64,000 nt of DNA. Origin: Thermoanaerobaculia bacterium (GTDB lineage Bacteria; Acidobacteriota; Thermoanaerobaculia; Multivoradales; UBA5704). The stretch covers positions 1 through 64,000 of the forward strand of contig JBGAGQ010000020.1 of NCBI GenBank assembly GCA_044226625.1, written 5' to 3'. Shown here one piece after another: positions 1 to 36,593 of the stretch. The notes under the pieces were generated by a model. It did no database searches. It had not been told where the DNA came from and worked only from the letters and a program-made list of their open reading frames with translations. Made by a program: the position numbers and the translations under genes. Positions within the stretch are counted from its first letter, which is position 1; every line of letters starts with the position of its first letter.

Positions 1-473
1 GCGATCAGGTAGCCGTCCATCCCCGAGCCGACGAAGACGCCGATGCGCCGGCCCTCGGCGTCGAACCGATCGGGATCGATCCCCGCCGCTTCGAGCGCCT
101 CCCAGGCGACCTCGAGCAGCACGCGATGCTGCGGATCGAGCAGCTCCGCCTCGCGCGGCGTGAAGCCGAACAGCCCGGCGTCGAAGAGATCGGCGCCGTC
201 GAGCAGGCCGCGCGCCTTGACGTACGCCGGATCGGCGATCTCCGCCTCCGAGACGCCGGCGGCGCGCAGCTCGTCATCGGACAGACGAGCGATCGTCTCG
301 CGCCCCGCCGCGAAGTTCGCCCAGAGCGCCTCGACCGTCGAGGCCCCGGGAAAACGGACGGCGAAGCTCACGACGGCGATTCCCAAGGCGCCGGACATGC
401 CGGATTCTGGGGCGTCCGAAGGATCGCCGTCGGGGGTGGGCGGGGCGGGGGTCGCGGTCGGCTCGTGGATCAT
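1..473 (-). CDS. Type I PKS / hybrid NRPS-PKS, N-terminal part of ketosynthase domain (runs off left edge)
   Basis: Not in ORF track. Manual translation from ATG at 473: MIHEPT...GIAVVSFAVRFPGASTVEALWANFAAGRETI...DPAYVKARGLLDGADLFDAGLFGFTPREAELLDPQHRVLLEVAWEALEAAG...GVFVGSGMDGYLI, a classic KS N-terminus. GAGAG RBS-like sequence upstream; starts 47 bp after the NRPS stop. Confidence 0.93.
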   Translation of the reverse strand, partial: MIHEPTATPAPPTPDGDPSDAPESGMSGALGIAVVSFAVRFPGASTVEALWANFAAGRETIARLSDDELRAAGVSEAEIADPAYVKARGLLDGADLFDAGLFGFTPREAELLDPQHRVLLEVAWEALEAAGIDPDRFDAEGRRIGVFVGSGMDGYLI

Positions 474-520
474 GGCTCTCTCGATTTCCGTCTTTTTCCA
501 TCTCGAAGGCAAAAACGTCA

Positions 521-3500
521 TCAGATTCGTCGCCGGACGCGAGCGCGCCGCCGTTCGAGCTCGGCGAGCCCTTCGCGGCGCTCGACGCTGCGCAGCCGGG
601 CGGCCGACAGTTGCTCGACCTGACGCGCCTCGACCTCGGCTCCCCCGGTTTCGGAGAGGCTCGCGGCGAGCCGGCGCAGCGTCGGATGCTGAAACAAGGT
701 GACCAGGGGAATCTCGCGGCCGATCTCGACTTGGACGCGGCTGTGGAACCGCACCAGCGAGACGGAGCTCGCCCCGAGATCGAAGAAGTTGTCGTCCAGG
801 CCGGCCGCGCCGAACAGCTCGGTCCAGAGCCCCAGGAGACGCGCCTCGAGCCCACCGGCCGGCGGCGCCTCGAGCGATCGCGCCTCGAGCGTCCGCGCCT
901 CCGGAGCGCCGAATGCGGGCAGCGCGCGGCGATCGACCTTCCCGCCGGGCGCGATCGGCAGCGCGGGGAGGACCGCGATCGCCGCCGGGATCATCTGGAC
1001 GGGGAGCCGTGGGGCCAGGTGGGCGAGCAGATCCTCGGGCGACGGAGCGGCGGACGGGGCCGCCACCCAGGCGACGAGGCGATCGGCGAAACGGTCCGAC
1101 CGTTCGACCCCCGCGACCGCCGCGGCGACCGCCGGGTGGGTCATCAGCGCCGCCTCGATCTCTCCCAGCTCGATGCGGAAGCCGCGCAGCTTGACCTGCC
1201 CTCCGGGACCTTCGACCCGGCCGAGGAACTCGAGGTCCCCGCCGGGCAGGTGGCGGACGAGGTCGCCGGTCCGATAGAGCCGCGCGCCGCGATCCCCCTC
1301 GGCGGTCGACGGATCCGGCACGAACCGGTCGGCGGTGAGGTCGGGGCGATCGAGGTAGCCGCGAGCGAGGCTTGGGCCGCCGAGCAACAGCTCCCCCACC
1401 ACGCCGCGCGGCACCGGTCGGAAATGGGCATCGACGACGGCGACGCGGATGTGCGGCATCCCGCGGCCGATCGGCAGGCGCGCCGGCACGTCGCTCGTCC
1501 GCGGGATCGGCCAACCCGCCGCGATGACCGTGGTCTCGGTCGGGCCGTAGACGTTGACCAGGCGGAGGGCGGGCTCGCGCGCGAGGAGGTCGCGCACCGA
1601 GTCGCCGTGCCCTGCCTCGCCGCCGAAGCGCACCTCCCGTAACGACGCCGGACAGCGCAGGTCCTCGGCCGCGATCGCCGCGCAAATCTGGCTCCAATAC
1701 GCCGTCGAGAGGAAGACGACGCTCACTCGCCGCTCCTCGAACTGACGGAGCAGCTCGCGCGCGCCGGGCACTTCGGTGCCGCGGATCGACAGCGCGCCCC
1801 CGGCGGCGAGGGGAGCGAAGATCTCCTCGACGCTGCCGTCGAAGCCGAGCGACGAGAACTGCGGCATCCGGTCGTCAGGACCGAGTCCGAGGACCTCCGT
1901 CTGAGAGGCGATATAGGCCTCCAGCGCGCCGTGCGAGACGGCGACCCCTTTGGGCCGCCCCGTCGAGCCCGAGGTGTAGGTGACGTAGGCGAGCCGTGCC
2001 GGATCGAAAGCCGGTGCGGTAGGAACCTTCCGCTCGTCCCCTACGTCGTTCTCGAAATCGGTACCCGGAGCGGCCACGCGTTCGATCCGGGCATCGTTCA
2101 GCAGGACCACCGGCATCGTGAGCGTCGGAAGCCGCTCGGCCCAGCGAGCGGCGATCCGGAACGCCCAGGCCCGCTCGTCCGAGCGCCCGGCCTCGCGCGG
2201 GGCGACCAGCGCGCGGCAGGCGCTATCCGCGAGAACGAAGGCGATTCTCTCGGCGGGATACCCCGCGTCGAGCGGCACGTAGGCGCAGCCGACGGAGAGG
2301 ATCGCGTGGATCGCGATCAGCGCCTCGAACGATCGATCGAGCGCGATCGCCACCCGGTCCTCGGGGCGCAAATCCAAGGCGCGGAAGCGGCGGGCGAGCG
2401 CCCGCGAGCGCGACACGAGCGCGCCGAACGTGAGGACCGCATCGCCGAAGAATGCCGCCGGCCGGTCGGGCGCCCGCTCCGCCCAGGCCGCCACCCGCTC
2501 GGTCCAGGGCGACACCTCCGCGGGATCGTGGCCGGCGCGCCATTCGACCAGGACTTGATGGCGCTCTCCTGGTCCCAGCATCGGCAGGTCGCCCCAGGGC
2601 GCGCCGTTCGGGTCGTCGACCGCGGCGGCGAGGAGGCGGCCGAGCTGATCCACCCAGCGCCAGGCGGTCGTCCGATCGAACAGGTCCGCGGCGATCTCGA
2701 GCCGTCCCGCCATGCCGTCCGGCGTCCGCTCGATCGACAGCAGCAGCTCGAATTTCGCGTCGATCGTCGAGCCGTCAAGCTCCTCGAGGTCCGCGAGGAC
2801 CGTCAAGGAGAGATCGCCGAACCGGGCTCCCCGGAGCGGGCTCTCCGCCTGCCAGTTAAGCGCGGCCTGGACTAACGGCGGCCGGCTGGGATCGCGATCC
2901 CGCGCGACTACTTCCACCAGGCGCTCGAACGGCATCTCCGCGTGGGCGAGCGCGTCGAGCGCTCGGTTTCGTACCCGGCCGAGCAGATCGGCGAAGCTCC
3001 CTTCCGCTCCTGAGAGACCGACCCGGTCGATTCGCAGCGGCACGACGTTGGCGAAGAATCCGATCAGCGGCTCGATCTCGGGCCGATCGCGGCCAGAGAC
3101 CGGCGTGCCGAGCAGCAGCGGCGCCCGTCCCGAAGCGACCGTCCAGCGCGCGAGCAAGGCGCCGAATCCGGCCGCGAGCACGGCGAACGCCGTCGTCCCC
3201 TGCGCGCGGGCGAGCGCCTCGATTCGTTCCGCGAGACCGAGGCCCCAAACGAGCGGTACGGCGAGGCCCCGGGTGGAAAGGACCGGCGGACGCGTCCGGT
3301 CGGTCGGCAGGTCGAGCACCGTGGGTACTTGGGCCAGCTCGTGGCGCCAGAACTGGATCTGGCGAGAGGTCTCTTCTCCCTCGACCCTGCCCGCGGTCTC
3401 ACCGCTAGCCTCCCGGCCGACGAGGGCGTCGGCCCAACGCCGCCGCTGCCAGGCGGCGTAGTCGGCCACCTGGATCGACAGCGCGGGAAGCGCCGCGGCG

Positions 3501-6500
3501 CGCCCCGCCGAGAGCGCCGCAAGCGCCTCTCCCACCTCGGCGACCAGCAGGCCGATCGACGCGCCGTCGGAGACGGCGTGGTGGTGCTCGAAGAGCAGCA
3601 CGTGGTCACCCCCGTTCGTCGCCGGGTGCGAAGCGAGGCGCAGGAGCAGGGCGCGGAACAGCGGACCCACGGCGAGATCGAACGGCAGGCGCGCGCGATC
3701 GCGGGCGAGGCGCCGAACCTCCGCGGCGCGGGGCGTGGCATCCAGCGACGCGAGATCGATCGCGGGGAGCGCCATGAGCCCGGGCGGCGCGATCGCGAGA
3801 CGCGGACGGCCCTCCCGCTCGGGGAAGCTCGCGCGGAGCCCTTCGTGCCGCCGAGCGACCTCGGCGATCGCCGCGGCCAACCGCGGCGGTTCGAGCGGCC
3901 CCGTGAGGCGCAAGGCGACCGGTAGGTTGTAGGCCGCCCCGGCGCCCATCCGGTCGAGGAACCAGAGCCGCTCCTGCGCGAGCGAGAGGGGGCGCTCCGC
4001 CCGGGACGGAAGCGGAACGATCGGCGGGCTCGCGGCGACCGCTTTGGCGGGGCTCGAGACCGCGGAAACGCCGGCCGCGATCCGCTCGGCGAGCTCGCGC
4101 ACGGTCGGCCGCTCGAACAGGGCCTTGAGCGGCAGCGCCAGACCGAACCGGCGCCGAACCGCGGAGAGCACCCGGGCCGCGAGCAGCGAATGGCCGCCGA
4201 GGGCGAAGAAGCCGTCGTGGGCGCCGATCGGTTGTCTCTCCCCGACGGCATCGACGGAGCCCAGAACCTCGCCAAAGATCTCCGCCACCTTCGTCTCGAT
4301 CGGCCCGGAAGGAGGCTCGTACGACGGCGCCCCGGAGTCGGGCTCGTGAGGTGCGACCGGCCGGCGCCTTTCCGGCTCAGGCGCGAGGCGGCGGTCGATC
4401 TCGGACAACGGGAGCGAAGGATCGTCCACGGCCGCTTCCAGCAGCTCGACGAAGCTCCGCGCCCAACGCTCCACGCTCGCCCGAGCGAAGAGGTTGGCGT
4501 CGTATTCGAAACGACCGACGAGAATCCCTTCGACCTCTCGGAGCGCAAGCGCGAGATCGAGCTTCGCGGTCGCGGTCGAAAGCTCTTCGATCTCGATCGC
4601 GAGGCCCGGGATGTTCGGCGGGGCGAGCGGCCGGTCCTGGTAGGTGAACAGCACGGAGAAGAGAGGCGGCCGGCCGTCGCGCCGTGCTGTCGCGGCGCCC
4701 AGCTCTTCGATCAAACGCTCGAGCGGCAGGTCGCCGCGCGAGAGGGCCGAAAGCGCCGCGCCCCGCGCGCGGAGGACGAGGTCCGCGAAGCTCGGATCGC
4801 CGTCGGTCCGCAGCCGAACCGGCACGGTGTTCACGAACAGACCGATCAGCGGCTCGATCTCCTCGCGGGTCCGCCCTGCCACCGGAACGCCGATCACCAG
4901 ATCGTCCTGCCCCGCGACTCTCGCGAGCAACGACGCCAGGGCGGCGAGCGTCCACTGGAACGGCGTCGCCCCGAACGACCGCGCCCGGGCAAACAGCCGC
5001 GTCGAAAGGGCCGCCGAGAGGGCGACCGGCACCTCCCCGCCGCGCGATCCAGCGCGGAGCCGGTCCATTCCATCAACGGGAAAATCGGTCGGTAGATCGA
5101 GCCTCTCCGGCGCCCCTGCGAGCTCGGCCCGCGCGAGGTCGAAAGCAGGCTCCAACGCGCCGCGCGCCAGCTCCTCGCGCTGCCACGCGGCGAAGTCGGC
5201 GTAGGCGATCGGCAGCTCGGGCAACGGCGACGGCCGCCCGGCCTCGGCCGCCTCGGCCACCTCCATCAGGACTCCCAGCTCGCGGGCGAACAGGGCGAGC
5301 GAAGCGCCGTCGGCCGCGAGGTGGTGGATCGTCGCGGCGAGCCGCGCCTCCCGTGGGGCCAGCGCGAGCCAGAGCGCACGCAGGAGCGGCTCGCGGCCGA
5401 TCGCGAACGGGCGGCGCGCCGCCGCGGTTTCGATCCGCCGCGCTTCCGACGCCCTGGCGTTCGAGACGGCCCGGAGATCGACGCGAGGCATCCGAAGCAG
5501 ACGAGACGACCAGGGGATCTCCCATCCACGGACGTCCGTGATCCAGGAATTGCCGACGAGCGTCTCGACCTCCACGAACCGGGTGCGGAGAGGTGCGTGG
5601 CGGCTGAGGATCGCACCGAGCGCCGCGGCGAACCGTGGCGCGAGCCGGTCCGGTTCGCCGCCGCGGATCCCCAGGACGAACGGCAGATGGTAGGCGGCGG
5701 TGCCCGGCTCCAGTCGTTCGAGGAATTCCATCCGCTCGACCGCGAACGAGAGCGGCTCTCCTTCCGGATCGCGCGTCCGGCGCGTCGGGGGAGATCCCCC
5801 TCGCCGTTCGTTCGCTCGAAGCTCGCGTGCGAGCCCCGCGGGGGTCGGCGCGGCGAAGAATCGGGCGAGCGGAAGCGTCGCGGCCCGCGCGCCGAACACC
5901 TCCCGCACCCGCGCGAGCAGCCGCGCCGCGAGCAGGGAGCCACCGCCGAGGGCGAAGAAGTCCTCTCGGACCGCGACCCGCTCCCGCCCCAGCACCTCGG
6001 CGAACAGAGCGGCGACCGTCGCCTCGATCTCGTCGCCCCCAATCGACTCGCTCGCCCCTCCATCCACGGCGTCGCGCGCGGGGAGGAAACTCGGACGCAA
6101 GGCGCGACGGAGCCGAAGCTCCGCCTCCTCCTCGGCGCGAAACACTGGCACCGACGAGAGCGGCGAGCCGGAGCCAAGCGAGAGGGCCGAGACGAACGAA
6201 AGCAGGCGATCGTAGGCGGCGAGCCAGCGGTCGATCGTCGAGCGATCGAAGAGATCCGAGTCGTATTCGGCTGAGATGGCGAGACCGCCGTCGGGAGTCG
6301 GCGTCGCGTCGAGCGTCAGATCGAAGCGCGCGGTGCCGACGTCGACCCGGCGCGGTGAGAAGGTGACGCCACCCACCTGCCAAGGAGAGAGCGGCTCCTC
6401 CAGGACGAAGAGGACCGGAAACAGCGGGCTCCGCGCCGTATCGCGTCGCGGCGAGAGATCTTCCACCAGGACCTCGAACGGCAGGTCGCGGTGGGCGAGT

Positions 6501-9500
6501 GCGAAACGCACCGCGTCGCGCGCTCGCGCGAGAAGCGCTTCGGCCGCCGGGTCGTCGCCCAGGTTGACGTCGAGCACGAGGGTGTTGCCGAACATGCCGA
6601 TCAGCCGCTCCACCTCGACGCGCGGCCGGATCTCGACCGGCGTGCCCAGGGGGATGCGCGGCTCGCCGGTCAGTCTCGCGAGCAAGGCGAACGCGGCGGC
6701 GGAGAGCGCCTGGAACCGGCTCGCGCTCGATCGCCGCGCGGCTTCGTCGAGACCGGCGACCACCGCCGCGGAGATCGATCGGGATGCGACGTCTCCGCGG
6801 CCCGAGCGCGCCTCGGGCCGGTCGCGATCGGTGGGGAGATCGAGAAGCGGAAGGCCGGAGAGGCGTTCTCTCCAGGTCGCGAGAAGGGTCTCCAGCCGCT
6901 CGGGGTCGAGCGCCTCGCGTTGCCAGACCGCGAAATCCGCGAACTGGATCGGCAGCTCCGGAAGCCGCCCCGCCCTCGCCTCGACCGAGGCCGACCAAGT
7001 CTCGGCGAGCTCGGCGGCGAATATCCCGAGCGAGCCGCCGTCGGCCGCGGCATGGTGGAGCGAGAGAGCGAGCCGAAACTCGTCCGGCCGCTCCCCGACC
7101 AGCAGAGTACGGAGCACCACGCCGCGGGATAGATCGAGCGGCAAGGTCCCCAACGCCTGAACGAGGCGAGCGCCCTCGTTCTTCCGACGTTCGGCGGGGA
7201 CAGCGCGAAGATCCGCGAAGGGGAGTGGTGGGATCGATGATCCGACCGGCCGCGCAATCTGGCGCGGCCCCGCCGAACCGTCGCGGATCGCGGTCCGCAA
7301 GACCTCGTGCCGCGCCACCACCCGGGCGAGCGCCGCCGCGAGACGCGCGGGCGCCGCACCGTCGAGCGCCCCCGCGATCTCGACCTCTCCCGCCAGGTGG
7401 TAGGTCGGCCGCCCGGGAGCGAGCTGGTCCAGGAACCAGATCCGCTCCTGCGCGAAGGCGAGCGGCAGGCCCTCCTTCGGACGGCCGCACGCCACCAGGG
7501 GCAACGAAGCCACGGGCGATCCAGCCTGCGCACCTCCTTCGGCGAGCCGGACTCCCAGCCCCGCCACGGTCGGCGCCTCGAACAGGTCCGCGACGGGCAG
7601 CTCGCGGCCGAGCCGCCGAGCGACTCGAGCCGCCGCCCGCGCCGCGAGCAGCGAATGTCCGCCGAGGGCGAAGAAGTCGTCGTGGACCCCCACCTTTTCG
7701 CGCCCCAACACCTCCGCGAAGATCTCGGCGAGAGCCACCTCGATGCGGTTCCGCGGCGCGACGTATTCGGCTCCGCCGGGCTCTTCCGCGGCGAGCCGAC
7801 CGAGCGCCTTGCGGTCGAGCTTGCCGTTCGGCAGACGCGGCAGCGTATCGAGCCGCGCGAGCGTCCCCGGCACGAGATAGCCGGGGAGGCGCCCTTTGAG
7901 CTCGGCGAGGATCGCCGCGGTCTCCGCCTCTCCGGCGACGAATCCCGCGAGCCGACGGTCTCCCCCCTCGCCCACCACGGCGACCGCCGCCTCGCGTACG
8001 CCCGGCACGGCGAGCAGCGCCGCCTCGACCTCCCCCAGCTCCACGCGGAAACCGCGCACCTTCACCTGGTTGTCGATACGGCCGAGGTAATGGAGCGTCG
8101 GCCGGCCGAAATGCGGATCTCGAAGGTCGAGTCGCGACCGGTCGCCCGTCGTGTAGAGCCGTGCCCCTGGAACGCCGGAGAACGGATCGGGAACGAATCG
8201 CTCCGCGGTCAGGTCGGGCCGTCCGAGGTAACCGCGCGCGAGACCGGCTCCGGCGAGACGCAGCTCACCGGGCACGCCCGCGGGCAACAGCTCGCCGAAC
8301 CGTCCAACCACGTACCCCGAGGTACCCGGAAGGGGTTGGCCGATCGGCGGCGGCGGCCCCTCCTCGCCTCGGCGGATCTCCTGCCAGGTCGAATACGTCG
8401 TGTCCTCGGAAGGCCCGTACAGGTTGTTCACCCGACGCACGCTCGGGCTCGAAGCGAAGATCCGCTCGACGAGCGTTCCGGGAAGCGCCTCGCCCGCGAG
8501 GTTCACGGCGAGGATGCTCGCGGGCAGACCCTCGGAACGGACCAGCTCGGCGAGCGCCGACGGCACGGTGTTGATCAGCGTCACCGGATGCCGCGCCGCC
8601 GCCACGGCGAGATCAAGCGCGTTGTCGGCGAGCACCAGCGCCCCCCCAGAGGAGAGCGTCGCGAACAGCTCGAAGACGGAAAGATCAAAGCAGACCGAGG
8701 TGGCGAACAGCACCGCCTGCAACTCGTCGGCAGGGAACGCCGAGAGCGACCAGGAGATGAACCCCGCGGCAGTCCCGTGATCGATCGCCACGCTCTTCGG
8801 CCGCCCGGTGGAGCCCGAGGTGTAGATCAGATAAGCGAGATGCCGCGGCTCGGGGCGGGCCACCCTCGCGAGATCTCGGCCCGTCTCCCGATGATCGATC
8901 AAGTCCTCGATCGGCAGGGCGACCTCCGCCGGAACCAGATGGGCGAGCCCGCGCTCCACGAGGCAGATCCGCGCGCCCGAATCGTCGAGCAGAAAGCGCA
9001 GGCGCTCCTCCGGATACGCCGGATCGAGCGGCACATAGGCACCCCCGGCGGCGAGCACGCCGAGGAGCGAGGCGACCAGATCGGGCCCCCGCGAGAGGAG
9101 GACCCCCACCCGTTCCTCCGGCGCCACGCCGCGCGCCCGAAGCACGTCGGCGAATCCCTGCGCGCGCGCGGCGAGTTGGCCGTAGGTCAGCCGCTCCTCC
9201 GCGCCCACCACGGCGAGCGCGCCCGGCCGCTCGGCGGCGAGGGCGAAGAAACGCGCGTGCAGGAGCGCAAGCCCGGGAGTCGGCACCGCCGCTCCTCCGT
9301 CGCTCGCCGCGAGGATCTGCGCCCGCTCCGCATCCGTGAGCAGCGGCAGCTCGGACAGGCGCACCGGGGTACCGGAGGCGATCGCTTCGATCGAGCGCTC
9401 CCAGGCGGCGAGCCAGCGCTCGATCGTCGCGCCGTCGAATCGCTCGGTGTCGTACTCCGCCCAGATCTCGAAACCGGCCGCGGCGGGAACCACCGCGAGC

Positions 9501-12500
9501 GCCAGATCGAGCTTAGCCGTCCCCGAATCGAGCCGGCGCGGCAGCAGCTCGAGCGCGCCGGCCCGGCGCGGCGCGAGCGGCGGCTCGAGCGAAAGCAGCA
9601 CGTCGAACAGCGGGTTCTGCGCTAGGTCGCGACGGGGCGCGATCTCTTCCACCAACAGCTCGAACGGCAGCTCTTCCCGCGCATAGGCGGCGAGCGCCCC
9701 GGCGCGCATCCGTTCGAGCAACTCGGGAGCCGTCGGGTCGTCGCCCGTTTCGAGGTCGAGGACGAGGGTGTTGGCGAGGAAGCCGAAAACGCCCGCGAGC
9801 TCCGGTGCATTTCGGTTCGCGACCGGCGTGCCGATCGCCGTCTTCGCCCGTCCCGAGAGGCGCGCGAGCAGGGCATGGAGCGCCGCGCCGAGGAGCATGA
9901 ACGGCGTGGCGCCGAACGACCGTGCCCGCGCGGCGAGACGCTCGCCGAGGCCGCCGCCGAAGCGGGCGGAGAGCGTCCGTCCCGCACCGGTCCGGCGCGC
10001 ACCGCGCGCGCGGTCGGCCGGCAGGTCGAGCGGCTCGAGATCGGCCAAACGATCGCGAAAATAGGCGAGCGGCTCGCGGACGCGAGAGGCGGTGAGATGC
10101 TGGGTCTGCCACCGCGCGACGTCGGCGAGCTGGATCTCCGCCGGAGGAAGATTCGGCGCCGCCCCTCGGCAGAACGCGCCGTACGCCGCCTCGAACTCTC
10201 CCCAAAAAAGATCGAGCGAGGCACCGTCGGCGATTAGGTGGTGGAAAACCGAGACGAGCTGGGCGCGCGTCGGGCCGAACATCAAGGAGGCGAAGCGGAC
10301 CAGAGGCCCGGCCGCGAGATCGAAGGGCCGACGCGCGAGCTCGCGGGCCAACCGTTCCGATTCCGCGGCTTCAGGGCCTAGCGCCGACAGATCGACGCGA
10401 GGCAGGAGGGCACCGCTCACCGCGGAGGCGATCTGGTAGGGCTCCCCTTCTTCGTTGGGGATCGCCGTCCTTAGGGCCTCGTGGCGCTCGACCAGCGCTA
10501 TGAGCGTCTTTTCGAGCGCGCCCTCGTTCCGCTTGCCGCGAAGCTCCACCGCCCCGGCGACGTGATAGGTCGCCCGTCCCGGATGCAGCCGCTCCAGGAA
10601 CCAGAGCCGCCGCTGCGGGAAGGTGAGCGGCGAGCGTTGGCCGCGGACTCCAGATCGGACTCGTGGCAGCGGCTCCCCACCCGCGTCTCCCTCGGTGAGC
10701 CTTTTCGCCAGCTTTTCCGCCAACCTCTCCGCCAGGCCGGATACCGTCGGCCTCTCGAACAGCGCCACGAGCGGCAGCTCGCGTTCGAAGGCCCGCCCCA
10801 CGCGCGCCGCGGCGCGCGCGGCCGACAGCGAATGGAGCCCGAGCCCGAGGAGGTCCTCGTGCCGACCGATCGGACGCGACGTTCCCAGCACCTCGGCGAA
10901 GATCCCCGCGACGATCTCCTCGGTGGCGTTCTTCGGCGGCTCGTACGCTTCCCCCCCGGTCCCGAAGCTCGGCTCGGGCAATCTCCGCCGATCGATCTTG
11001 CCGTTCGGAGTCAGCGGGATCGCCGAGAGCTCGACGAACGCGCTCGGGATCATCGCCTCGGGCAACCGCGCCGCGAGCGCCGATTTGAGCCGTTCGACGT
11101 CGAAAGCCCGCTCGGTCGGCACAACGTAGGCCGCGAGCCGCGCCCGCTCCCCCGTTCCGAAGACGGCGGCGGCCGCCCCCGAAACCCCTGGCGCGGCCAG
11201 GATCGCCGCTTCGATCTCCCCCAGCTCGATCCTCTGGCCGCGCACCTTGACCTGCGCGTCGATTCGGCCCAGGAAATCGAGCACCCGCGACCCGTTCCCG
11301 TCCACTTTCCAACGGACCCGATCGCCGGTTCGATAGAGGCGCGCGCCCGGCTCGCCGGAAAACGGATCGGGGATGAACCGCTCGGCCGTCAGGTCCGGGC
11401 GCCGGTGGTAGCCGCGAGCGAGCCCCCTCCCGCCGAGCGCGAGCTCTCCCGCCTCGCCAAACGGCGCGAGCTGACGGTTGCGATCGAACGCCCGGTCGAG
11501 GACGTAGGCGCGCACGCCGTCGATCGGCCGTCCGATCGACGGCGCGCCTTCTTCTTCGCGCGGATCTCCGGCCCGCACCTCGCCGGCGGTCGCCACCACC
11601 GCGTTCTCGGTCGGCCCGTAGTGATTGACGAGCGCGAAGGGAAGCCCGGCCGGCGGGTTCGAGCGCAGCCGGTCGCCGCCGGTCAAGATCACGCGGAGCC
11701 CGCGGCCTGGGCGGGAGTCCGCCGGCTCCCTTTTCGCCAATGCCCACGTACCGGCGAGGCACGCCTCGGCGATCGGGGTCGAGAGGAAGGCGACCGTCGC
11801 CTCGACGCGCTCGAGCCACGCGGGCAGGCGCTCCGGATCGGTGCGCATCCCTGCCTCTGGCGCGACCAGGGCGGCGCCCGCGGCGAGCGGCGGCCAGGTC
11901 TCCCAAACCGCCGCGTCGAACGCCGGGCCCGCGAGCAGCGGCGTCCGGTCCGAAGGGGTCAGGCGGTAGGTTGCGAGATGCCACGCGAACAGGTTCGCGA
12001 GCGCACCGTGCGGCACGACGACCGCTTTTGGCCGGCCGGTCGAGCCGGAGGTGTAAATCGCGTACGCCGCCTGCTCCGGCGCGACGTTCGCCGGCCGGGT
12101 AAGGGGCCGGCCACCTGGCGCCTCGAGATCGAGCACCGGGCAGGAGAAGATCCGCCGGGCTCGCTCGAGCATCTCGCGGGAAGCGAGCACGATCGCGGCT
12201 CCGCTGTCGGCGATCTCGAAAGCGAGCCGCTCGTCGGGATGAGCCGGATCGAGCGGCAGGTACGCCCCGCCCGCCAAAAGCGCCGCGAGCTGGCCGATCA
12301 CCGCCGCGGCCGAGCGTCCGGCGAGAAGGGCGACGAAGCGCTCCGCGCCCACCCCGCGCGCCGCGAGATCCCCACCCAGCGCGAGCGCCCGGTTCCAGAG
12401 ATCCCCGTAGTTGAGAACCCTGCCCGCTTCGACGATCGCAACCGCCGTCGGGTCGGCGGCGACCCGCGCGGCCACCGCTTCGGGGATGAGCTGGAGCGGG

Positions 12501-15500
12501 CCTCCCTTGGCTCCTGAAACTCCCGCCCCTCCCTCGTCGATCAGCTCCGCCCGCTCGGCGGCCGAGAGCAGCGAGAGACCGCTGAGCGGAGCCTCCGGTC
12601 GCGCGATCGCCGATTCGACCAGCCGTTCGAGCCGCGCGAGCGCCCGTTCGATGGTCTTCGCCTCGAACAGATCGGCGTTCGCCTCGAGCGCCAGATGAAG
12701 CGAGGAACCGTGCGTGCCGTTCGACCGCGCGGCATGGAGCGCCCATTCGAACGGCACCCGCCGCTCGGGCAGGGCGAGCGCCCGCACGGTCTGCCCGGCG
12801 AGGTCGACGTGCGCCCCCTCGATTCCCAGCGCGAACGCCGCGAGCTCCCCCGCCCGCTCGAACGTCGCGGCGACCTGCGCGAGCGGCGGCCGAGAGGGAT
12901 CGCGGCGCGGCCGCAGCGCCTCGGCGAGCCGCGAGAACGGAGCCTCCGCCGCCGAGGCGACGGCCGCCGCCGAGGCGCCCCGGATCCGCATCGCATGGAC
13001 GGCGAACGACGGATCGCCGTCGATCTCGACCGGGATCGCCGCCGGTTGGACGAGGTAACCGATCAGCCTCTCGAGGCCCGCGTGCTGTCGACCCGAGGTC
13101 GGCGCGGCGATCGCGAACCGCGATTGGCCGGTGATCCGATGGAGATACGCGGAGAACAGCGCGACGAGCAGAGCGAAAGGGGTCGATCCCGTCGAGCGCG
13201 CGAGCCGGTCGAGGCCGATCTCGACCTCCGGGGAGAGCGGCTGCGCGCGGAGGAGCCCGCGGAAGCTCCGAACCGCCGGACGCGGCCGGTCGGTCGGCAG
13301 GTCGAGGTCCTCGACACCGGTGAGCGCCGCCCGGCGCGCCGAAAACACGGAGCCCTCGCCCGTCGGCAGCTCGACAAGGCGCTCGGCGCGCCAGGCCAGC
13401 AGATCGGCGAGCGAGATCTCCGCGGGAGGCGCCAGCCGGGCGAGCCGGCAGGAGACCTCCGCGGCGTAAAGAGCCGTCAGGTCCTCGACGAACAGCGCGA
13501 GCGACGCGAAGTCCGCCACCAGGTGATGGACCGCGAAGCCGATCGCCGTCTCCCCGCCCGGACGCTCGAGCAGCGCGAGGCGGACGAGCGGTCCCGTCGC
13601 AAGGTCGAACGGTTCGAACAGGAGAGCGCCGAGACGATCGGAGAGATCCCCGTCGCCTTCGACGTGCTGCTCGCGAATCAGGTCGATTCGAGGCGAAGCG
13701 AAGGTCTGGATCGCCGCGCTCCGCTCGCCGCCCGCTTCCGAAAAGACGGTGCCGAGCGCCGGATGGCGGGCGACGGCGCGCTCGGCCGCCGCGGCGAGCG
13801 CTTCGGCGTCGAGCCCCTCGGCGAGCGCGGCCACCGCGATCGTGTAGGCCCCCGGCGCGAGGCGTTCCGCCGCGAAGAGCGCTTCCTGTTCCAGGCCGAG
13901 CGGCAGGACCGTGGCGCCCGCGGCGGATCCAGCGCGAGGACCGGAAGAGCCCCGCGCCGCCGAGGCGCCGGCCAGCAGGTCGGCGAGGCTTCCACCGTCG
14001 AGCAGCTCGGAGAGCGGCAGGTCGACCCCGAGCGCCCGCGCCGCGACCGACAGCTCGACCGCCGAGAGCGAATCGAGCCCCTGGGCGGAGAGCGGACGGG
14101 CCGGATCGAACCGTTCGGCGGGAAGACGGAGGATGCGCGCCGCGACGGCGGAAAGGGCTTCGAGCGTCGGACGTTCCGCTCCGGATCCGCCCGCTGCTTC
14201 GTGGCGCGACGTGTCCGCCCGCCGGACCGCCTCGCCGAGAGTACCGGCGAGATAGGCGGCGCGCGCCGCGCCGCGCCGGACCTTGCCGCTCGTCGTCTTC
14301 GGAAGCGCCCCGGGCGCGAGCAATCTAACGTCCGCCACCTGGACTTCTTGCCGCTCGGCGATCGCAGCGCGCACGGAGTCGCCGATCGCCTCCGCCGTCG
14401 CGCGGGCGTGGCGCGAGACCTCGGCGACCAGGATCAAGAGTTCCTCAGTTTCCTCACCTTCAGCGATCGAGAACGCGGCCGATCCCCCGGCGATCAGATC
14501 CTCATGTGCTCCTTCGGCCGTCCGCTCGAGGTCCTGCGGGTAGTGGTTACGACCGCGGAGGATGATCAGGTCCTTGAGGCGGCCGGTGACGTAGAGCTCG
14601 CCCGCCACGACGAACCCGAGATCGCCCGTCCGCAGATAACGGTCGGTCGAGCCCGCAATCCGCGCACCGAAGGTCGCGGTGGAAAGCTCCGGCCGATTGC
14701 GGTAGCCCGCCGCGATCGACGGACCGCTCACCCAGATCTCGCCGATCCGGCCTTCCGCGCAGTGGCGCCCGAGCGACGCCGTCTGGCGGTCGTCCCCAAC
14801 CTCGGCTTCGACGATCGCGAGCTTCTGATCTCCCCACGAGGCACCGCAGGAAACCAACCGGCGCGCGTTGCGCGCCCCTTCCGCGGCCGGCCGCGCCTCG
14901 TTGGCTTCGAGCCCTTCCGCGTCGAACGCGGCGACGCGCGGCGGTCGGCCGAGCGTCGGCCCGGCGACGAACAACGTCGCCTCGGCAAGGCCGTAGCACG
15001 GATAGAAGGCCTCCTGCCGAAAGCCACTCGGCGCGAAGCGACGCGCGAAGGCGACGAGCGTCTCCGCCCGCACCGGCTCGGCGCCCGAGAAGGCGACCCG
15101 CCACGACGAAAGATCGAGCCGCGCGGCCTCCTCCTCGCTCACTTTGCGCGCCGCGAGCGCGTAGGCGAAATCGGGGCCGCCACTCGTCGTCGCGCGGTAT
15201 CTCGCGATCGCCTCGAGCCAGCGCGCCGGCCGTTGCAGGAACGCGACCGGCGCCATCAGGATGCAGCGCCCCCCACTCCACAGCGGTTGGAGCACGTTCC
15301 CGATCAGCCCCATGTCGTGGTAGAGCGGCAGCCAGCCGACCACGATCGAGCTCTCGTCCTGGTCGAACGCGGTCGCGATCATCGCGAGGTTCGCCGCGAG
15401 GTTCGCGTGGCTGACGATCACGCCCTTCGGCTCGGAAGTGGAGCCCGAGGTGTACTGGAGGAACGCGGTGGCGCTCGGGTCGATCTCGGGTAGCGACTGC

Positions 15501-16102
15501 GGGGACGAGGCAACTCCGCCTTGCGTCTCGGACAGCGCGATCCACGGGAGATCACGAAGCGCCGGCACACCGGCGGCGAGCGACGGTCCGGCCGCCGCGA
15601 TCTCGGCCGTCGTGAGCACCGCCCGGGGCGCGGCATCCGCCGCGACGCCCGCGAGGCGCTCCCCCTCGCGCTCCGGCCGGCGTAGCGACCGAGGGGGGTA
15701 GGCGGGAACCGCCACCACGCCGCCGAGCAGGCAGCCGAAGAAGCCGATGAGAAATTCGAGCCCGGGAGGGAACAGCAGGAGCGCCCGATCGCCGGTCGCG
15801 AGCCCCATGGCGTGAAGGTCGCGCGCCACCCCCTCCGCCCTCGACCGGAGCTCACCCCAGGTGAGCGACGCGGCTTCCGTTTCGCCGTCCGCGAGCCAGG
15901 TGTAGGCGAGGCGCCGAGGTGTCGCCTCCGCGCGTTCGATCAGGCGAACGACCACCGACGCCGTCCCAACCCCAATCGGCGGGAAAGCCTGAGGCTCCCC
16001 GGTTTCGATGCCGGGGGGCACGAAGTCGACGCGATCGTTCATCGAATCGTCGGGATCGGAGCTCGAGCTGCGATCGGAAGCGCGAGGCGCGCCGGGCTCC
16101 AT
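521..16102 (-). CDS. Lipopeptide NRPS: FAAL-ACP-C-A-T-C-A-T-C-T-C-T-C-A-T
   Basis: FAAL motifs (FLQYTSGSTSEPKG, WLPLYHDMGLIG); six carrier Ser motifs (GLDSL, GLHSL, GGHSL, GGGSL, GGHSL, GASSV); five HHxxxD motifs; three further A domains with YTSGSTG, YGPxE, TGD and GKxDR motifs. No E or TE domain. True start could be ATG 16042. Confidence 0.96.
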   Translation of the reverse strand: MEPGAPRASDRSSSSDPDDSMNDRVDFVPPGIETGEPQAFPPIGVGTASVVVRLIERAEATPRRLAYTWLADGETEAASLTWGELRSRAEGVARDLHAMGLATGDRALLLFPPGLEFLIGFFGCLLGGVVAVPAYPPRSLRRPEREGERLAGVAADAAPRAVLTTAEIAAAGPSLAAGVPALRDLPWIALSETQGGVASSPQSLPEIDPSATAFLQYTSGSTSEPKGVIVSHANLAANLAMIATAFDQDESSIVVGWLPLYHDMGLIGNVLQPLWSGGRCILMAPVAFLQRPARWLEAIARYRATTSGGPDFAYALAARKVSEEEAARLDLSSWRVAFSGAEPVRAETLVAFARRFAPSGFRQEAFYPCYGLAEATLFVAGPTLGRPPRVAAFDAEGLEANEARPAAEGARNARRLVSCGASWGDQKLAIVEAEVGDDRQTASLGRHCAEGRIGEIWVSGPSIAAGYRNRPELSTATFGARIAGSTDRYLRTGDLGFVVAGELYVTGRLKDLIILRGRNHYPQDLERTAEGAHEDLIAGGSAAFSIAEGEETEELLILVAEVSRHARATAEAIGDSVRAAIAERQEVQVADVRLLAPGALPKTTSGKVRRGAARAAYLAGTLGEAVRRADTSRHEAAGGSGAERPTLEALSAVAARILRLPAERFDPARPLSAQGLDSLSAVELSVAARALGVDLPLSELLDGGSLADLLAGASAARGSSGPRAGSAAGATVLPLGLEQEALFAAERLAPGAYTIAVAALAEGLDAEALAAAAERAVARHPALGTVFSEAGGERSAAIQTFASPRIDLIREQHVEGDGDLSDRLGALLFEPFDLATGPLVRLALLERPGGETAIGFAVHHLVADFASLALFVEDLTALYAAEVSCRLARLAPPAEISLADLLAWRAERLVELPTGEGSVFSARRAALTGVEDLDLPTDRPRPAVRSFRGLLRAQPLSPEVEIGLDRLARSTGSTPFALLVALFSAYLHRITGQSRFAIAAPTSGRQHAGLERLIGYLVQPAAIPVEIDGDPSFAVHAMRIRGASAAAVASAAEAPFSRLAEALRPRRDPSRPPLAQVAATFERAGELAAFALGIEGAHVDLAGQTVRALALPERRVPFEWALHAARSNGTHGSSLHLALEANADLFEAKTIERALARLERLVESAIARPEAPLSGLSLLSAAERAELIDEGGAGVSGAKGGPLQLIPEAVAARVAADPTAVAIVEAGRVLNYGDLWNRALALGGDLAARGVGAERFVALLAGRSAAAVIGQLAALLAGGAYLPLDPAHPDERLAFEIADSGAAIVLASREMLERARRIFSCPVLDLEAPGGRPLTRPANVAPEQAAYAIYTSGSTGRPKAVVVPHGALANLFAWHLATYRLTPSDRTPLLAGPAFDAAVWETWPPLAAGAALVAPEAGMRTDPERLPAWLERVEATVAFLSTPIAEACLAGTWALAKREPADSRPGRGLRVILTGGDRLRSNPPAGLPFALVNHYGPTENAVVATAGEVRAGDPREEEGAPSIGRPIDGVRAYVLDRAFDRNRQLAPFGEAGELALGGRGLARGYHRRPDLTAERFIPDPFSGEPGARLYRTGDRVRWKVDGNGSRVLDFLGRIDAQVKVRGQRIELGEIEAAILAAPGVSGAAAAVFGTGERARLAAYVVPTERAFDVERLKSALAARLPEAMIPSAFVELSAIPLTPNGKIDRRRLPEPSFGTGGEAYEPPKNATEEIVAGIFAEVLGTSRPIGRHEDLLGLGLHSLSAARAAARVGRAFERELPLVALFERPTVSGLAERLAEKLAKRLTEGDAGGEPLPRVRSGVRGQRSPLTFPQRRLWFLERLHPGRATYHVAGAVELRGKRNEGALEKTLIALVERHEALRTAIPNEEGEPYQIASAVSGALLPRVDLSALGPEAAESERLARELARRPFDLAAGPLVRFASLMFGPTRAQLVSVFHHLIADGASLDLFWGEFEAAYGAFCRGAAPNLPPAEIQLADVARWQTQHLTASRVREPLAYFRDRLADLEPLDLPADRARGARRTGAGRTLSARFGGGLGERLAARARSFGATPFMLLGAALHALLARLSGRAKTAIGTPVANRNAPELAGVFGFLANTLVLDLETGDDPTAPELLERMRAGALAAYAREELPFELLVEEIAPRRDLAQNPLFDVLLSLEPPLAPRRAGALELLPRRLDSGTAKLDLALAVVPAAAGFEIWAEYDTERFDGATIERWLAAWERSIEAIASGTPVRLSELPLLTDAERAQILAASDGGAAVPTPGLALLHARFFALAAERPGALAVVGAEERLTYGQLAARAQGFADVLRARGVAPEERVGVLLSRGPDLVASLLGVLAAGGAYVPLDPAYPEERLRFLLDDSGARICLVERGLAHLVPAEVALPIEDLIDHRETGRDLARVARPEPRHLAYLIYTSGSTGRPKSVAIDHGTAAGFISWSLSAFPADELQAVLFATSVCFDLSVFELFATLSSGGALVLADNALDLAVAAARHPVTLINTVPSALAELVRSEGLPASILAVNLAGEALPGTLVERIFASSPSVRRVNNLYGPSEDTTYSTWQEIRRGEEGPPPPIGQPLPGTSGYVVGRFGELLPAGVPGELRLAGAGLARGYLGRPDLTAERFVPDPFSGVPGARLYTTGDRSRLDLRDPHFGRPTLHYLGRIDNQVKVRGFRVELGEVEAALLAVPGVREAAVAVVGEGGDRRLAGFVAGEAETAAILAELKGRLPGYLVPGTLARLDTLPRLPNGKLDRKALGRLAAEEPGGAEYVAPRNRIEVALAEIFAEVLGREKVGVHDDFFALGGHSLLAARAAARVARRLGRELPVADLFEAPTVAGLGVRLAEGGAQAGSPVASLPLVACGRPKEGLPLAFAQERIWFLDQLAPGRPTYHLAGEVEIAGALDGAAPARLAAALARVVARHEVLRTAIRDGSAGPRQIARPVGSSIPPLPFADLRAVPAERRKNEGARLVQALGTLPLDLSRGVVLRTLLVGERPDEFRLALSLHHAAADGGSLGIFAAELAETWSASVEARAGRLPELPIQFADFAVWQREALDPERLETLLATWRERLSGLPLLDLPTDRDRPEARSGRGDVASRSISAAVVAGLDEAARRSSASRFQALSAAAFALLARLTGEPRIPLGTPVEIRPRVEVERLIGMFGNTLVLDVNLGDDPAAEALLARARDAVRFALAHRDLPFEVLVEDLSPRRDTARSPLFPVLFVLEEPLSPWQVGGVTFSPRRVDVGTARFDLTLDATPTPDGGLAISAEYDSDLFDRSTIDRWLAAYDRLLSFVSALSLGSGSPLSSVPVFRAEEEAELRLRRALRPSFLPARDAVDGGASESIGGDEIEATVAALFAEVLGRERVAVREDFFALGGGSLLAARLLARVREVFGARAATLPLARFFAAPTPAGLARELRANERRGGSPPTRRTRDPEGEPLSFAVERMEFLERLEPGTAAYHLPFVLGIRGGEPDRLAPRFAAALGAILSRHAPLRTRFVEVETLVGNSWITDVRGWEIPWSSRLLRMPRVDLRAVSNARASEARRIETAAARRPFAIGREPLLRALWLALAPREARLAATIHHLAADGASLALFARELGVLMEVAEAAEAGRPSPLPELPIAYADFAAWQREELARGALEPAFDLARAELAGAPERLDLPTDFPVDGMDRLRAGSRGGEVPVALSAALSTRLFARARSFGATPFQWTLAALASLLARVAGQDDLVIGVPVAGRTREEIEPLIGLFVNTVPVRLRTDGDPSFADLVLRARGAALSALSRGDLPLERLIEELGAATARRDGRPPLFSVLFTYQDRPLAPPNIPGLAIEIEELSTATAKLDLALALREVEGILVGRFEYDANLFARASVERWARSFVELLEAAVDDPSLPLSEIDRRLAPEPERRRPVAPHEPDSGAPSYEPPSGPIETKVAEIFGEVLGSVDAVGERQPIGAHDGFFALGGHSLLAARVLSAVRRRFGLALPLKALFERPTVRELAERIAAGVSAVSSPAKAVAASPPIVPLPSRAERPLSLAQERLWFLDRMGAGAAYNLPVALRLTGPLEPPRLAAAIAEVARRHEGLRASFPEREGRPRLAIAPPGLMALPAIDLASLDATPRAAEVRRLARDRARLPFDLAVGPLFRALLLRLASHPATNGGDHVLLFEHHHAVSDGASIGLLVAEVGEALAALSAGRAAALPALSIQVADYAAWQRRRWADALVGREASGETAGRVEGEETSRQIQFWRHELAQVPTVLDLPTDRTRPPVLSTRGLAVPLVWGLGLAERIEALARAQGTTAFAVLAAGFGALLARWTVASGRAPLLLGTPVSGRDRPEIEPLIGFFANVVPLRIDRVGLSGAEGSFADLLGRVRNRALDALAHAEMPFERLVEVVARDRDPSRPPLVQAALNWQAESPLRGARFGDLSLTVLADLEELDGSTIDAKFELLLSIERTPDGMAGRLEIAADLFDRTTAWRWVDQLGRLLAAAVDDPNGAPWGDLPMLGPGERHQVLVEWRAGHDPAEVSPWTERVAAWAERAPDRPAAFFGDAVLTFGALVSRSRALARRFRALDLRPEDRVAIALDRSFEALIAIHAILSVGCAYVPLDAGYPAERIAFVLADSACRALVAPREAGRSDERAWAFRIAARWAERLPTLTMPVVLLNDARIERVAAPGTDFENDVGDERKVPTAPAFDPARLAYVTYTSGSTGRPKGVAVSHGALEAYIASQTEVLGLGPDDRMPQFSSLGFDGSVEEIFAPLAAGGALSIRGTEVPGARELLRQFEERRVSVVFLSTAYWSQICAAIAAEDLRCPASLREVRFGGEAGHGDSVRDLLAREPALRLVNVYGPTETTVIAAGWPIPRTSDVPARLPIGRGMPHIRVAVVDAHFRPVPRGVVGELLLGGPSLARGYLDRPDLTADRFVPDPSTAEGDRGARLYRTGDLVRHLPGGDLEFLGRVEGPGGQVKLRGFRIELGEIEAALMTHPAVAAAVAGVERSDRFADRLVAWVAAPSAAPSPEDLLAHLAPRLPVQMIPAAIAVLPALPIAPGGKVDRRALPAFGAPEARTLEARSLEAPPAGGLEARLLGLWTELFGAAGLDDNFFDLGASSVSLVRFHSRVQVEIGREIPLVTLFQHPTLRRLAASLSETGGAEVEARQVEQLSAARLRSVERREGLAELERRRARVRRRI

Positions 16103-16202
16103 GAAAACCGGTTCGGCGCGGATCGAGCGTCCGGCGCATCGGCGGGCCCCCCGAGCCGGAGCCCATCATCCGCGGTCAACCTCAGAGTGCCGACCGGCCG
16201 CT

Positions 16203-16862
16203 TTATGGGGACTCTGAGAAGACCTTTTCAGACAGCCAGCGCGTGAGCATTCGCAGCGCTTCCGGGCGAATCTCGTGCGCCATCGCGAACTCGCGGTAGA
16301 GCATTTGGACGCCGAACGTTCGCAGCCGCTCACGGCTGTCGCGGGCGCGCTCGATCTCGATCATCCGATCCTCGGTCCCGTGGAAAACCAGGACCGGCAG
16401 CGCCTCGTGCTCCGGGAGTTTGGGGAGGCTGTCCGCCAACGGTTCGGGGAGCCAGGTCGAAAGGGCCGCAATGCCGCGGAATCGCGCCGGCTCGCGAAGG
16501 CCGAGCTCGAACGCCATCAGACCGCCCTGGCTGAATCCCCCCACGGCCAGCCGCTTCGGATCGATCGGATAGGTTTCGATCGCCTCGTCGAGCCAGGCGC
16601 GCAACGTACCCGCGCGCTCGCGGAACTCCGCCTCGTTCGGGGGCTGCCCCGGCACGAGCTGGAACCAGCCGTAGCCCTCCATCCCGGGACCGACCTGGAG
16701 CGTCACCTCGCCCTGGGGGCAAAGGACGAGCGCTTGCCCCCCGTGGAGATGCGGAGCCAGCCCGAGCAGGTCGTGGGCGCTCGCCCCCCAACCGTGGCAG
16801 AGGACGAGGGTGGGAAACGGGCCGTCGCCCGCCGGAAGGTGGGCCGTGTGCAGAAGCTTCAT
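16203..16862 (-). CDS. Phospholipase/carboxylesterase (alpha/beta hydrolase)
   Basis: HGWG oxyanion region, GFSQG nucleophile, HGTED Asp and MAHEI His. Confidence 0.88.
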   Translation of the reverse strand: MKLLHTAHLPAGDGPFPTLVLCHGWGASAHDLLGLAPHLHGGQALVLCPQGEVTLQVGPGMEGYGWFQLVPGQPPNEAEFRERAGTLRAWLDEAIETYPIDPKRLAVGGFSQGGLMAFELGLREPARFRGIAALSTWLPEPLADSLPKLPEHEALPVLVFHGTEDRMIEIERARDSRERLRTFGVQMLYREFAMAHEIRPEALRMLTRWLSEKVFSESP

Positions 16863-25563: not shown

Positions 25564-25573
25564 CGCTTCGAGT

Positions 25574-27088: not shown

Positions 27089-27207
27089 CCCAGGACCTCC
27101 CACCAATCCGTCGATCGGATGAAACTCTATTCTAGCCGCCCGCCTCCTCCATCTTCCGATCTACTCCATCCCCGCATCACTTCACTCGGCCATGATACAA
27201 ACCGGCC

Positions 27208-28803: not shown

Positions 28804-28864
28804 AGGATCGAGAGGAATCGAGCACCCGTCGCTTCGAGTTGAAGAGGGTAGGAGGGCTCCTCGA

Positions 28865-29281
28865 ATGTTCCATCGAATCTTGATTCCGTTGGCCTTCAAC
28901 GACGAGAACGAAGCGGCGATCCGCGTCGGCTGCGATCTCGCCCAGCGCGAAGGCTCCGAGGTCCTGTTGCTCCACGTGGTGGAGACCATCCGCGGCATCC
29001 CGTTCGAAGAGATGCGCGACTTTTACGAGCGCCTCGAACGTCGGGCGGAGACGGAGCTCGGCGCCGTGGCCGAGCGATTCCGCGCGCTCCCGGTGGAGGT
29101 GAAGAGCGACGTGGTCTTCGGCGCCCGCGCCGAGCAGATCGTCTCGTACGCCCAGGAGCGCGGCGCCGACCTGATCGTCCTCTCCTCGCATCCGGCGAGT
29201 CCCGACAGTCCGGCGAGCCTCGGCACGATCAGCCACCGCGTGGCTCTGTTCGCGAGCTGCCCGGTCCTGCTGGTGAAGTGA
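28865..29281 (+). CDS. Universal stress protein (UspA family)
   Basis: MFHRILIP, LLHVVE, ADLIVLSSH, LGTISHRV...CPVLLVK. Confidence 0.92.
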   Translation: MFHRILIPLAFNDENEAAIRVGCDLAQREGSEVLLLHVVETIRGIPFEEMRDFYERLERRAETELGAVAERFRALPVEVKSDVVFGARAEQIVSYAQERGADLIVLSSHPASPDSPASLGTISHRVALFASCPVLLVK

Positions 29282-29399
29282 TCAGAGGGAGACCGGCGAT
29301 GTCGCCCCGCCCGTCGTAGGGCCTCCGTCCCAAGCTCGATCACGGGCACGGGTCGCTCCTACGCTCGGCCGCGGCCGCGTTCGGCTACACTCCCCGGCC

Positions 29400-31876: not shown

Positions 31877-31892
31877 GCGTCGTTCTCTCAGC

Positions 31893-32063: not shown

Positions 32064-32124
32064 GGCGACGAAGGTCCCGTCCTAGGGCTCACCCTGAGAG
32101 CAGGGGGAGGGACACCTCGGCCGG

Positions 32125-33542: not shown

Positions 33543-33552
33543 GGGTCGGCGA

Positions 33553-34557: not shown

Positions 34558-34559
34558 GC

Positions 34560-36500: not shown

Positions 36501-36593
36501 CCGCTCGTCGGCGATGGGGGCGATGGGATCGGCGCTCACCCCGGGGAGCTTACCGCCGAAGACGCCGGATTCTGCTATCGTTCGCGGTCCCCT

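Follow-up and report, generated by a model that had tools for sequence, protein, structure and literature searches.

We analysed the first 64,000 nucleotides (the window hereafter; G+C about 72%) of contig C6 (JBGAGQ010000020.1) from a Thermoanaerobaculia bacterium (genome G000, GCA_044226625.1), a metagenome-assembled genome (MAG) of 6.6 Mb in 133 contigs, estimated to be 97.9% complete and 5.5% contaminated. The left end of the window holds a giant nonribosomal peptide synthetase (NRPS) gene, NRPS1 (521-16102), an intact open reading frame (ORF) of 5193 aa with the domain order FAAL-ACP-C-A-T-C-A-T-C-T-C-T-C-A-T, and behind it the 5' end of a polyketide synthase (PKS) gene (gene 2), which breaks off where the contig ends. 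The remainder of gene 2 and a third megasynthase gene (gene 3) were found on contig C31 of the same genome. These three genes with their domains, the right edge of the island and the adjoining esterase gene all lie on the minus strand. Judging from domains, neighbourhood and relatives, it is likely that the three genes form a functional and self-contained NRPS-PKS-NRPS island, with which an uncultured, Thermoanaerobaculia-like acidobacterium would make an N-acylated peptide some ten residues long. Of the ten peptide modules, four have no A domain, namely modules 3 and 4 of NRPS1 and two of gene 3.

Domain order of the line across a contig junction

NRPS1 was searched against Pfam as two halves (AMP-binding, E = 2e-198 and 5.5e-93; Condensation, E = 6e-121 and 4.5e-194; PP-binding was matched as well) and then in a sliding scan of 28 overlapping pieces of 360 aa with a cut-off of E ≤ 1e-5, which returned only AMP-binding, AMP-binding_C, AMP-dom_DIP2-like, PP-binding and Condensation. 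Since the alignments to orthologues begin no earlier than residue 21, the true start is likely Met21 (nt 16042). The FAAL domain (residues 56-622, 14237-15937) matches AMP-binding and AMP-dom_DIP2-like; its top NCBIfam models were subfamilies of fatty-acid--AMP ligases (E from 5e-136 to 1e-118, below their whole-protein cut-offs) and its top PDB matches were all FAALs (7r7e, 3kxw, FadD23, FadD32 and FadD28). It is followed by a loading ACP (residues 649-710, 13973-14158; PP-binding, E = 1.5e-11) with the motif GLDSL and its Ser678, and by the first, lipid-accepting condensation domain C1 (residues 739-1187, 12542-13888) with HHLVADF at residue 859. A Ser-bearing carrier directly before a C domain with a His motif is the layout of FAAL-ACP-C lipoinitiation. 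Phe at the end of this motif was present in 9 of the 11 other matches bearing PF23024, as against 12 of 739 other HHxxxD motifs.

Module 1 is completed by A1 (residues 1212-1702, 10997-12469; code DAWFLGHVVK) and T1 (residues 1731-1794, 10721-10912, found with Pfam), and module 2 is composed of C2 (residues 1824-2264, 9311-10633; HHLIADG), A2 (residues 2288-2761, 7820-9241; code DLFNNALTYK) and T2 (residues 2790-2849, 7556-7735, from the sliding scan). The two modules without an A domain come next: C3 (residues 2879-3305, 6188-7468; HHAAADG) with T3 (residues 3362-3427, 5822-6019), and C4 (residues 3450-3903, 4394-5755; HHLAADG) with T4 (residues 3938-4008, 4079-4291). We conclude that the A domain is missing from both because the gaps between C and T measure only 56 and 34 residues, respectively. 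Module 5 comprises C5 (residues 4036-4500, 2603-3997; HHAVSDG), A3 (residues 4539-5055, 938-2488; code DGEFRGVVIK) and T5 (residues 5088-5147, 662-841, from the sliding scan), and the protein ends in an Arg-rich tail of 46 aa (residues 5148-5193, 524-661), with 12 Arg/Lys and 7 Asp/Glu among the last 40 residues. This tail is a possible docking element towards the PKS subunit. All five HHxxxD motifs precede an A or a T domain and NRPS1 contains no E domain; the second-His motif of dual E/C domains was looked for in the C domains and was not found, nor was a GxSxG motif in the last 300 residues, and NRPS1 has no TE domain. Over the whole line, every C domain keeps HHxxxD and every T domain its Ser.

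The window begins within gene 2. Positions 1-473 (ORF 3-473) encode the N-terminal half of a KS and match positions 4-127 of 252 of ketoacyl-synt (E = 5.7e-32). The last 1480 nt of C31 (54823-56302) align to C6:1-1480 with 95.2% identity, and C31 carries the complete gene 2 (C31:43977-55334, 3785 aa; KS-AT-KR-like-ACP-C-A-T-C-A-T) and gene 3 (C31:36862-43980, 2372 aa; C-T-C-T-C-A-T), the latter overlapping the stop of the former. The overlap falls short of identity and the bin is contaminated, so that C31 might be taken for a paralogous or foreign copy instead of the true left neighbour, its downstream part belonging to another cluster. This is highly improbable, since no other copy of either contig end is present in the G000 genome, the NRPS1 C-terminus encoded by C31 is 97% identical in protein sequence to that of C6, and three orthologous contigs share the junction between NRPS1 and gene 2 and the gene order. 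NRPS1, PKS-NRPS2 and NRPS3 follow each other in this order on the contiguous G003:C36 (68.7 kb) and G001:C117 (47.8 kb), with 58-77% identity. The C6 and C31 ends probably come from different strains in one bin. In G003:C36, a single in-frame stop (59801-59803, locus L092) splits FAAL-ACP (709 codons) from the rest of NRPS1 (4505 codons), the gene may really be divided into two proteins or be broken, or the stop may be a sequencing error.

In the PKS module, the KS keeps its Cys-His-His triad (QSACSTS, EAHGSAT and NFGHS). The AT has the motifs GYSLGE and HAFH, the latter of which we take to mark malonyl specificity, and an ACP was found by PP-binding; together these domains have the make-up of a type I cis-AT PKS module. 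In the KR-like domain, TDASSGVG stands at the site of the Gly-rich NADPH motif, which is canonically of the TGGxGxxG type, and the position of the catalytic Tyr is occupied by His or Leu in all three orthologues, a substitution visible in the alignment to the KR of PksJ (4j1q). The KR is degenerate, and because both the catalytic Tyr and the Gly-rich NADPH motif are missing, the beta-keto group probably stays.

These results bear out a sequence-only reading of the window, which had described the FAAL-ACP starter, a first C domain with HHLVADF (a motif that it called common behind FAAL-ACP), the codes of A1 and A2, the lack of TE and E domains in NRPS1 and a basic C-terminal tail followed by a KS gene, and which had proposed that an acyl-Leu-Ala-(?)-(?)-X chain is extended by a PKS module. 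A MAFFT-anchored extraction reproduced both codes, and the KS-AT-KR-like-ACP module to which a chain acyl-Leu-like-(Ala-type)-(?)-(?)-X would be handed was found on C31. Retrieval of this adjacent left contig gave the rest of the PKS module and five more NRPS modules, and the frameshifts looked for in the downstream genes were absent: in G000 the reading frame of the island is open throughout, over 11,350 codons. Four features go beyond that reading, namely the lack of A domains in the modules that it had marked with question marks, the lack of a TE in the whole line, the degenerate KR and the restriction of the cluster to three genes.

Borders and distribution of the island

The cluster consists of the three megasynthase genes only, about 34 kb, and contains no TE, tailoring or export gene. 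It spans from about window position 16182, across the contig junction, to about C31:36820. Its right edge lies in the spacer upstream of NRPS1 (16103-16182), where homology to the empty site of G002 ends near 16182, and the gene that marks the border is an Abhydrolase_2 esterase (16203-16862, 219 aa; Pfam E = 2.6e-26). In G002 and G004, which lack the island and whose best NRPS matches reach only about 45% identity, TruA, the esterase and a sulfatase-like gene directly adjoin each other; the esterase and the sulfatase-like gene being contiguous there, the island is made of the three megasynthase genes alone. A spacer of 100 nt in G002 matches both edges of the G000 island, the esterase-proximal and the sulfatase-proximal one, with an exact match of 17 nt at the latter. 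Neither direct repeats nor mobility genes were seen at the island edges.

Several flanking genes were considered as members of the cluster and rejected. The esterase is a conceivable release enzyme or aminoacyl shuttle, and it is adjacent and 82-85% identical in all three orthologous contigs; it also stands at the empty site of G002 and G004, and we rejected it as a cluster gene, although it may still have a role in the cluster. The sulfatase-like gene (C31:35177-36751) was likewise discarded as a tailoring gene, since it adjoins the esterase in these two genomes. It encodes a lipoprotein-type signal peptide and has TTPSF at the site of the sulfatase motif, which is CxPxR in sulfatases. Both flanks are 82-86% identical in the orthologous contigs. 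Neither an esterase nor a sulfatase-like gene was found beside any of 79 distant NRPS loci with A-less modules, some of which may stop short of the cluster edges. To the right of the island, the DAO and PhyH genes were rejected as tailoring genes because they adjoin TruA in the island-free genomes; together with ThrA and threonine synthase they are ordinary flank genes.

On C31, G000 has about 10.5 kb of DNA that is extra relative to G001 and G003 (about 24700-35177, loci L002 and L003), between the sulfatase-like gene and a conserved alpha/beta-hydrolase gene (C31:23484-24698). It encodes a GT28/EryCIII-like glycosyltransferase, a MacB/FtsX permease, a MazE/PIN pair and, one after the other, a radical SAM-SPASM enzyme and an ABC exporter, a pair resembling those of ribosomally synthesized and post-translationally modified peptides. 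Elsewhere in the window, a frame of 1340 codons on the plus strand (34632-38654; coding-like GC3 of 0.83) matches GreA/GreB over its last 140 residues only (1203-1333), an unusually long N-terminal extension if the upstream start is real, and a stand-alone gene resembling FAD-dependent halogenases (51160-52473, minus strand; Trp_halogenase, E = 1.2e-27) lies far from the NRPS genes of the window.

Orthologues of the island were searched in the 7 other genomes of the same genus and in 33 further relatives. They were found, at 53-67% identity, in five of the seven, while the 33 relatives reached at most 48%. The island is thereby present in 6 of the 8 genomes of the genus, in two of them as fragments. 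The lineage had been described as poorly studied, in agreement with what we found: it is represented by MAGs only, and the ThrA encoded next to the island shares 87% identity with proteins of bacteria named Acidobacteriota or Thermoanaerobaculia, the next match being at 62%. The part of the literature on Thermoanaerobaculia NRPS and biosynthetic gene clusters that was available to us yielded no characterised product from the class. A motif scan of G000 returned at least 32 large frames, spread over 21 contigs; several measure 5000-6800 codons, and many run off the end of a contig. Some two dozen of those listed are clear multi-domain NRPS/PKS, and the rest, with two or three His motifs or one KS motif, may be chance. 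Many NRPS candidates were present in all 24 same-family genomes searched, the whole family being NRPS-rich. Embedded sulfotransferase domains (PF13469, PF00685) occur in P0002, P0013, P0032, P0037 and other large Thermoanaerobaculia/Acidobacteriota NRPS; the island has none.

Charging of the A-less modules and predicted product

In order to predict the residues of the chain, codes were extracted from a MAFFT alignment anchored on conserved motifs, not on the numbering of GrsA (1amu), which ranked about 18th among the PDB matches. The six A domains of G000 gave DAWFLGHVVK (A1), DLFNNALTYK (A2), DGEFRGVVIK (A3), DVWHMSLVDK (A4), DALWLGGTFK (A5) and DLFNCALTYK (A6). The code of A1 equals the commonest Leu code at 9 of 10 positions, and McyB is among the top PDB matches of this domain. 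A2 and A6 differ by one residue, and we take DLFNNALTYK to be an Ala code. A5 differs by one residue from DALWIGGTFK, presumably a Val code. The code of A3 is the same in four orthologues. Among printed codes, DAWFLGNVVK is given for Leu, DVWHMSLVDK for Ser/Dha, and DALWIGGTFK as one of the three commonest codes among domains activating Leu, Ile or Val (PMC12283262). In a full-text and supplement literature search, we found no paper printing DLFNNALTYK, DAWFLGHVVK or DGEFRGVVIK.

On this basis, the line would operate as follows. The FAAL would adenylate a fatty acid and load it on its ACP, and C1 would join the acyl group to a Leu-like residue selected by A1. Modules 2-4 would add three residues, the Ala-type A2 most likely charging T3 and T4 as well, and module 5 would add the residue X selected by A3. 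The KS-AT(malonyl)-KR-like-ACP module would then lengthen X by two carbons, with the beta-keto group probably retained, before the addition of Ser (A4) and Val (A5). Gene 3 would add three further residues, all probably provided by its single Ala-like A domain (A6), and an enzyme encoded outside the island would release the product. The predicted chain is acyl-Leu-like, Ala x3, X, malonyl C2 (keto retained), Ser, Val and Ala x3, a ten-residue product whose chain would contain alanine tracts and, midway, a beta-keto gamma-amino acid, for which no described compound was matched.

Comparison within the genus bears on the origin of the A-less modules. The orthologue P0030 (G006:C82) aligns to residues 21-3326 and 3357-5178 of NRPS1 and carries 512 extra aa exactly between C3 and T3. 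This insert is an A domain whose code equals that of A2. Its identity to the A2 domain is 70-71% in both G000 and G006, and these two A2 domains share 75% identity; it is therefore an old paralogue and not a recent copy. The simplest history would be that two Ala-type modules stood side by side and that one of them lost its A domain, which was redundant. G001 has a single A-less module ahead of its Ala-type module, and its gene 3 is reduced to C-T-C-T without any A domain, so that in this island family some carriers must be loaded by another protein. In gene 3 of G000, the three C domains are 53-60% identical to one another and the T domains 56-65%, as against at most 45% (C) and 50% (T) with other domains, which points to modules that are close paralogues. 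We also examined 119 related proteins retrieved with the A-less region as query, a sample whose counts are indicative and not a statistic: 29 of them contained 41 A-less modules, the nearest upstream A domain of which was Ala-type in 15 of the 41 cases, Ala-type domains numbering 65 among all 711.

A precedent for carrier sharing is HMWP2, whose single A domain charges PCP1 and PCP2 in cis as well as PCP3 in trans (PMC9547227). From the module-3 A domain of P0030 and this precedent, we infer that neighbouring A domains most likely load the orphan carriers of the A-less modules. We tentatively propose that the genus displays a natural series of A-domain loss, in which a single Ala-type A domain routinely serves as many as three carriers, both in cis and on other subunits, and that the product is released by an enzyme encoded elsewhere.

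The orphan carriers might instead depend on a free-standing A or A-T protein whose gene lies elsewhere, perhaps together with an alpha/beta-hydrolase shuttle, in which case no neighbouring A domain of the line would be involved. We consider this unlikely, but it has points in its favour: the A-less gene 3 of G001 shows that carriers of the family can be loaded by another protein, A-T-type frames are present in other G000 clusters (C26, C67 and C113), the esterase always adjoins the island, and LgnA, WS5/WS20 and SyrC are precedents (PMC8748450). The island, however, holds three genes only, with no A-T or PF00975 gene among them; the esterase, being at the same place in the two island-free genomes, is not specific to it; and the module-3 A domain of P0030, with its module-2 code, fits the loss of a redundant domain. 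A second alternative is that the C-T modules have become relics and the line skips them, giving a shorter product of six amino acids and a ketide unit. Module number is indeed plastic between species, NRPS1 having four or five modules and gene 3 two or three, but the C domains of the four A-less modules keep HHxxxDG and their four T domains the Ser, and the A-less modules are kept without stops in G000, G003, G006 and G001 at 58-67% identity. An unloaded T domain past an intact C domain would, moreover, stall the line instead of being bypassed. Skipping thus appears quite improbable, and charging by the neighbouring Ala-type A domains is the explanation that we favour.

Release, functionality and comparison with known systems

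Gene 3 ends in a T domain followed by about 40 residues, as it does in G003, while in G001 it lacks the last C-A-T and also ends in a T domain. No TE, R or terminal C domain was found in any of the three complete orthologous lines, so that the line itself does not explain release, which must come from outside the island. C6 and C31 carry no TE (PF00975), none of the eight TE matches of the genome lying on either contig. Two candidates can be named, the esterase beside the island and a free TE on C84 (167955-168614).

This missing release domain is the first of several observations that weigh against a functional alanine-rich line, since a line unable to release its product would be inactive. 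Decay is another way to read the dead KR and the presence or absence of the island between genomes. The two contig ends appear to be of two-strain origin, because they overlap at 95.2% and not 100% and the bin is 5.5% contaminated. As for the residues, we found no literature confirming DLFNNALTYK as an Ala code, and code position 278 depends on the alignment, being shifted by one residue in a smaller one; the reading from the larger alignment was kept because it yields the printed Ser code for A4. In the homologue sample, 25 of the 41 A-less modules follow non-Ala A domains, and P0112, a relative described below, has a different code ahead of its C-T-C-T, so 'Ala x3' is no rule.

A third alternative is that the island is a decaying and non-productive cluster. 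Besides the lack of a release domain, the KR without catalytic Tyr and the absence of the island from two of the eight genomes of the genus, the in-frame stop between ACP and C1 in G003 can be cited for it. Against it stands a frame of about 34 kb that is open in G000, likewise in G001, and in G003 save for that one stop. The catalytic motifs are kept throughout, and GC3 (0.86 in NRPS1, as in nearby genes, and 0.86-0.89 across the island) is like that of the other genes of the genome. We regard decay as very improbable and retain a functional three-gene island as the likely reading.

The Thermoanaerobaculia are uncultured, yet G000 is packed with NRPS/PKS genes, and a small island with sharp borders, of which several natural variants are at hand, lends itself in practice to heterologous expression. 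These variants differ in their A-bearing modules, which makes the charging of the A-less modules directly testable. If the proposed sharing is true, the island shows natural shedding of redundant A domains and a compact, TE-less design for homo-oligomeric tracts, with two tri-alanine stretches around a keto-extended residue. The points of interest are the tandem A-less pairs, with a series of members with and without the A domain in one genus, the lack of a release domain and the clean three-gene island.

We finally compared the island with its relatives and with known systems. Its nearest proteins belong to MAGs bearing the names Thermoanaerobaculia, Acidobacteriota or Longimicrobiaceae. The sequence-only reading had recognised no characterised cluster with this architecture, which held when orphan status was judged by two proxies, the best named matches from cultured organisms and loci in representative genomes: the former (from Pyxidicoccus, Actinomadura and Minicystis) reach 37-41% identity over 45-48% of the query, and when representative genomes were scanned with the C-T-C-T region, most matches were to generic NRPS, at 47% identity or less. 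P0112 (6513 aa), an uncharacterised NRPS/PKS of a 'Thermoanaerobaculia bacterium', is 42% identical over residues 66-5180 and resembles NRPS1 in its motif order FAAL...C-T-C-T-C-A-T, but is fused to a PKS module and has other A codes. Among these proxies, no close characterised relative was found, which suggests an orphan cluster. Its single features, namely FAAL priming, a mid-chain PKS module and modules without an A domain, all have a precedent.

In mycosubtilin/iturin and puwainaphycin, a FAAL and an ACP likewise pass the acyl chain into NRPS/PKS modules (PMC11837247). Unlike in those FAAL-primed lines, here a single protein joins FAAL-ACP directly to a C domain and five NRPS modules, with the PKS module placed in mid-peptide. 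Mycosubtilin, iturin, bacillomycin and puwainaphycin are cyclic lipopeptides (PMC11837247), whereas the island has no release or cyclising domain. C-T modules without an A domain also occur in the multimodular NRPS of WS9326A, legonmycin (LgnA/LgnB/LgnD) and syringomycin (SyrC), whose clusters encode separate A-T proteins and TEII-like or SyrC-like shuttles (PMC8748450); the island encodes neither. The yersiniabactin proteins HMWP2/HMWP1 likewise contain an A-less module (Cy2-PCP2) within an NRPS-PKS hybrid (PMC9547227). The A-less modules of HMWP2 have Cy domains and handle cysteine, while those of the island have ordinary C domains, form two tandem pairs and stand beside an Ala-type A domain. 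Carrier sharing was shown for HMWP2 (PMC9547227), whereas for the island it is inferred.

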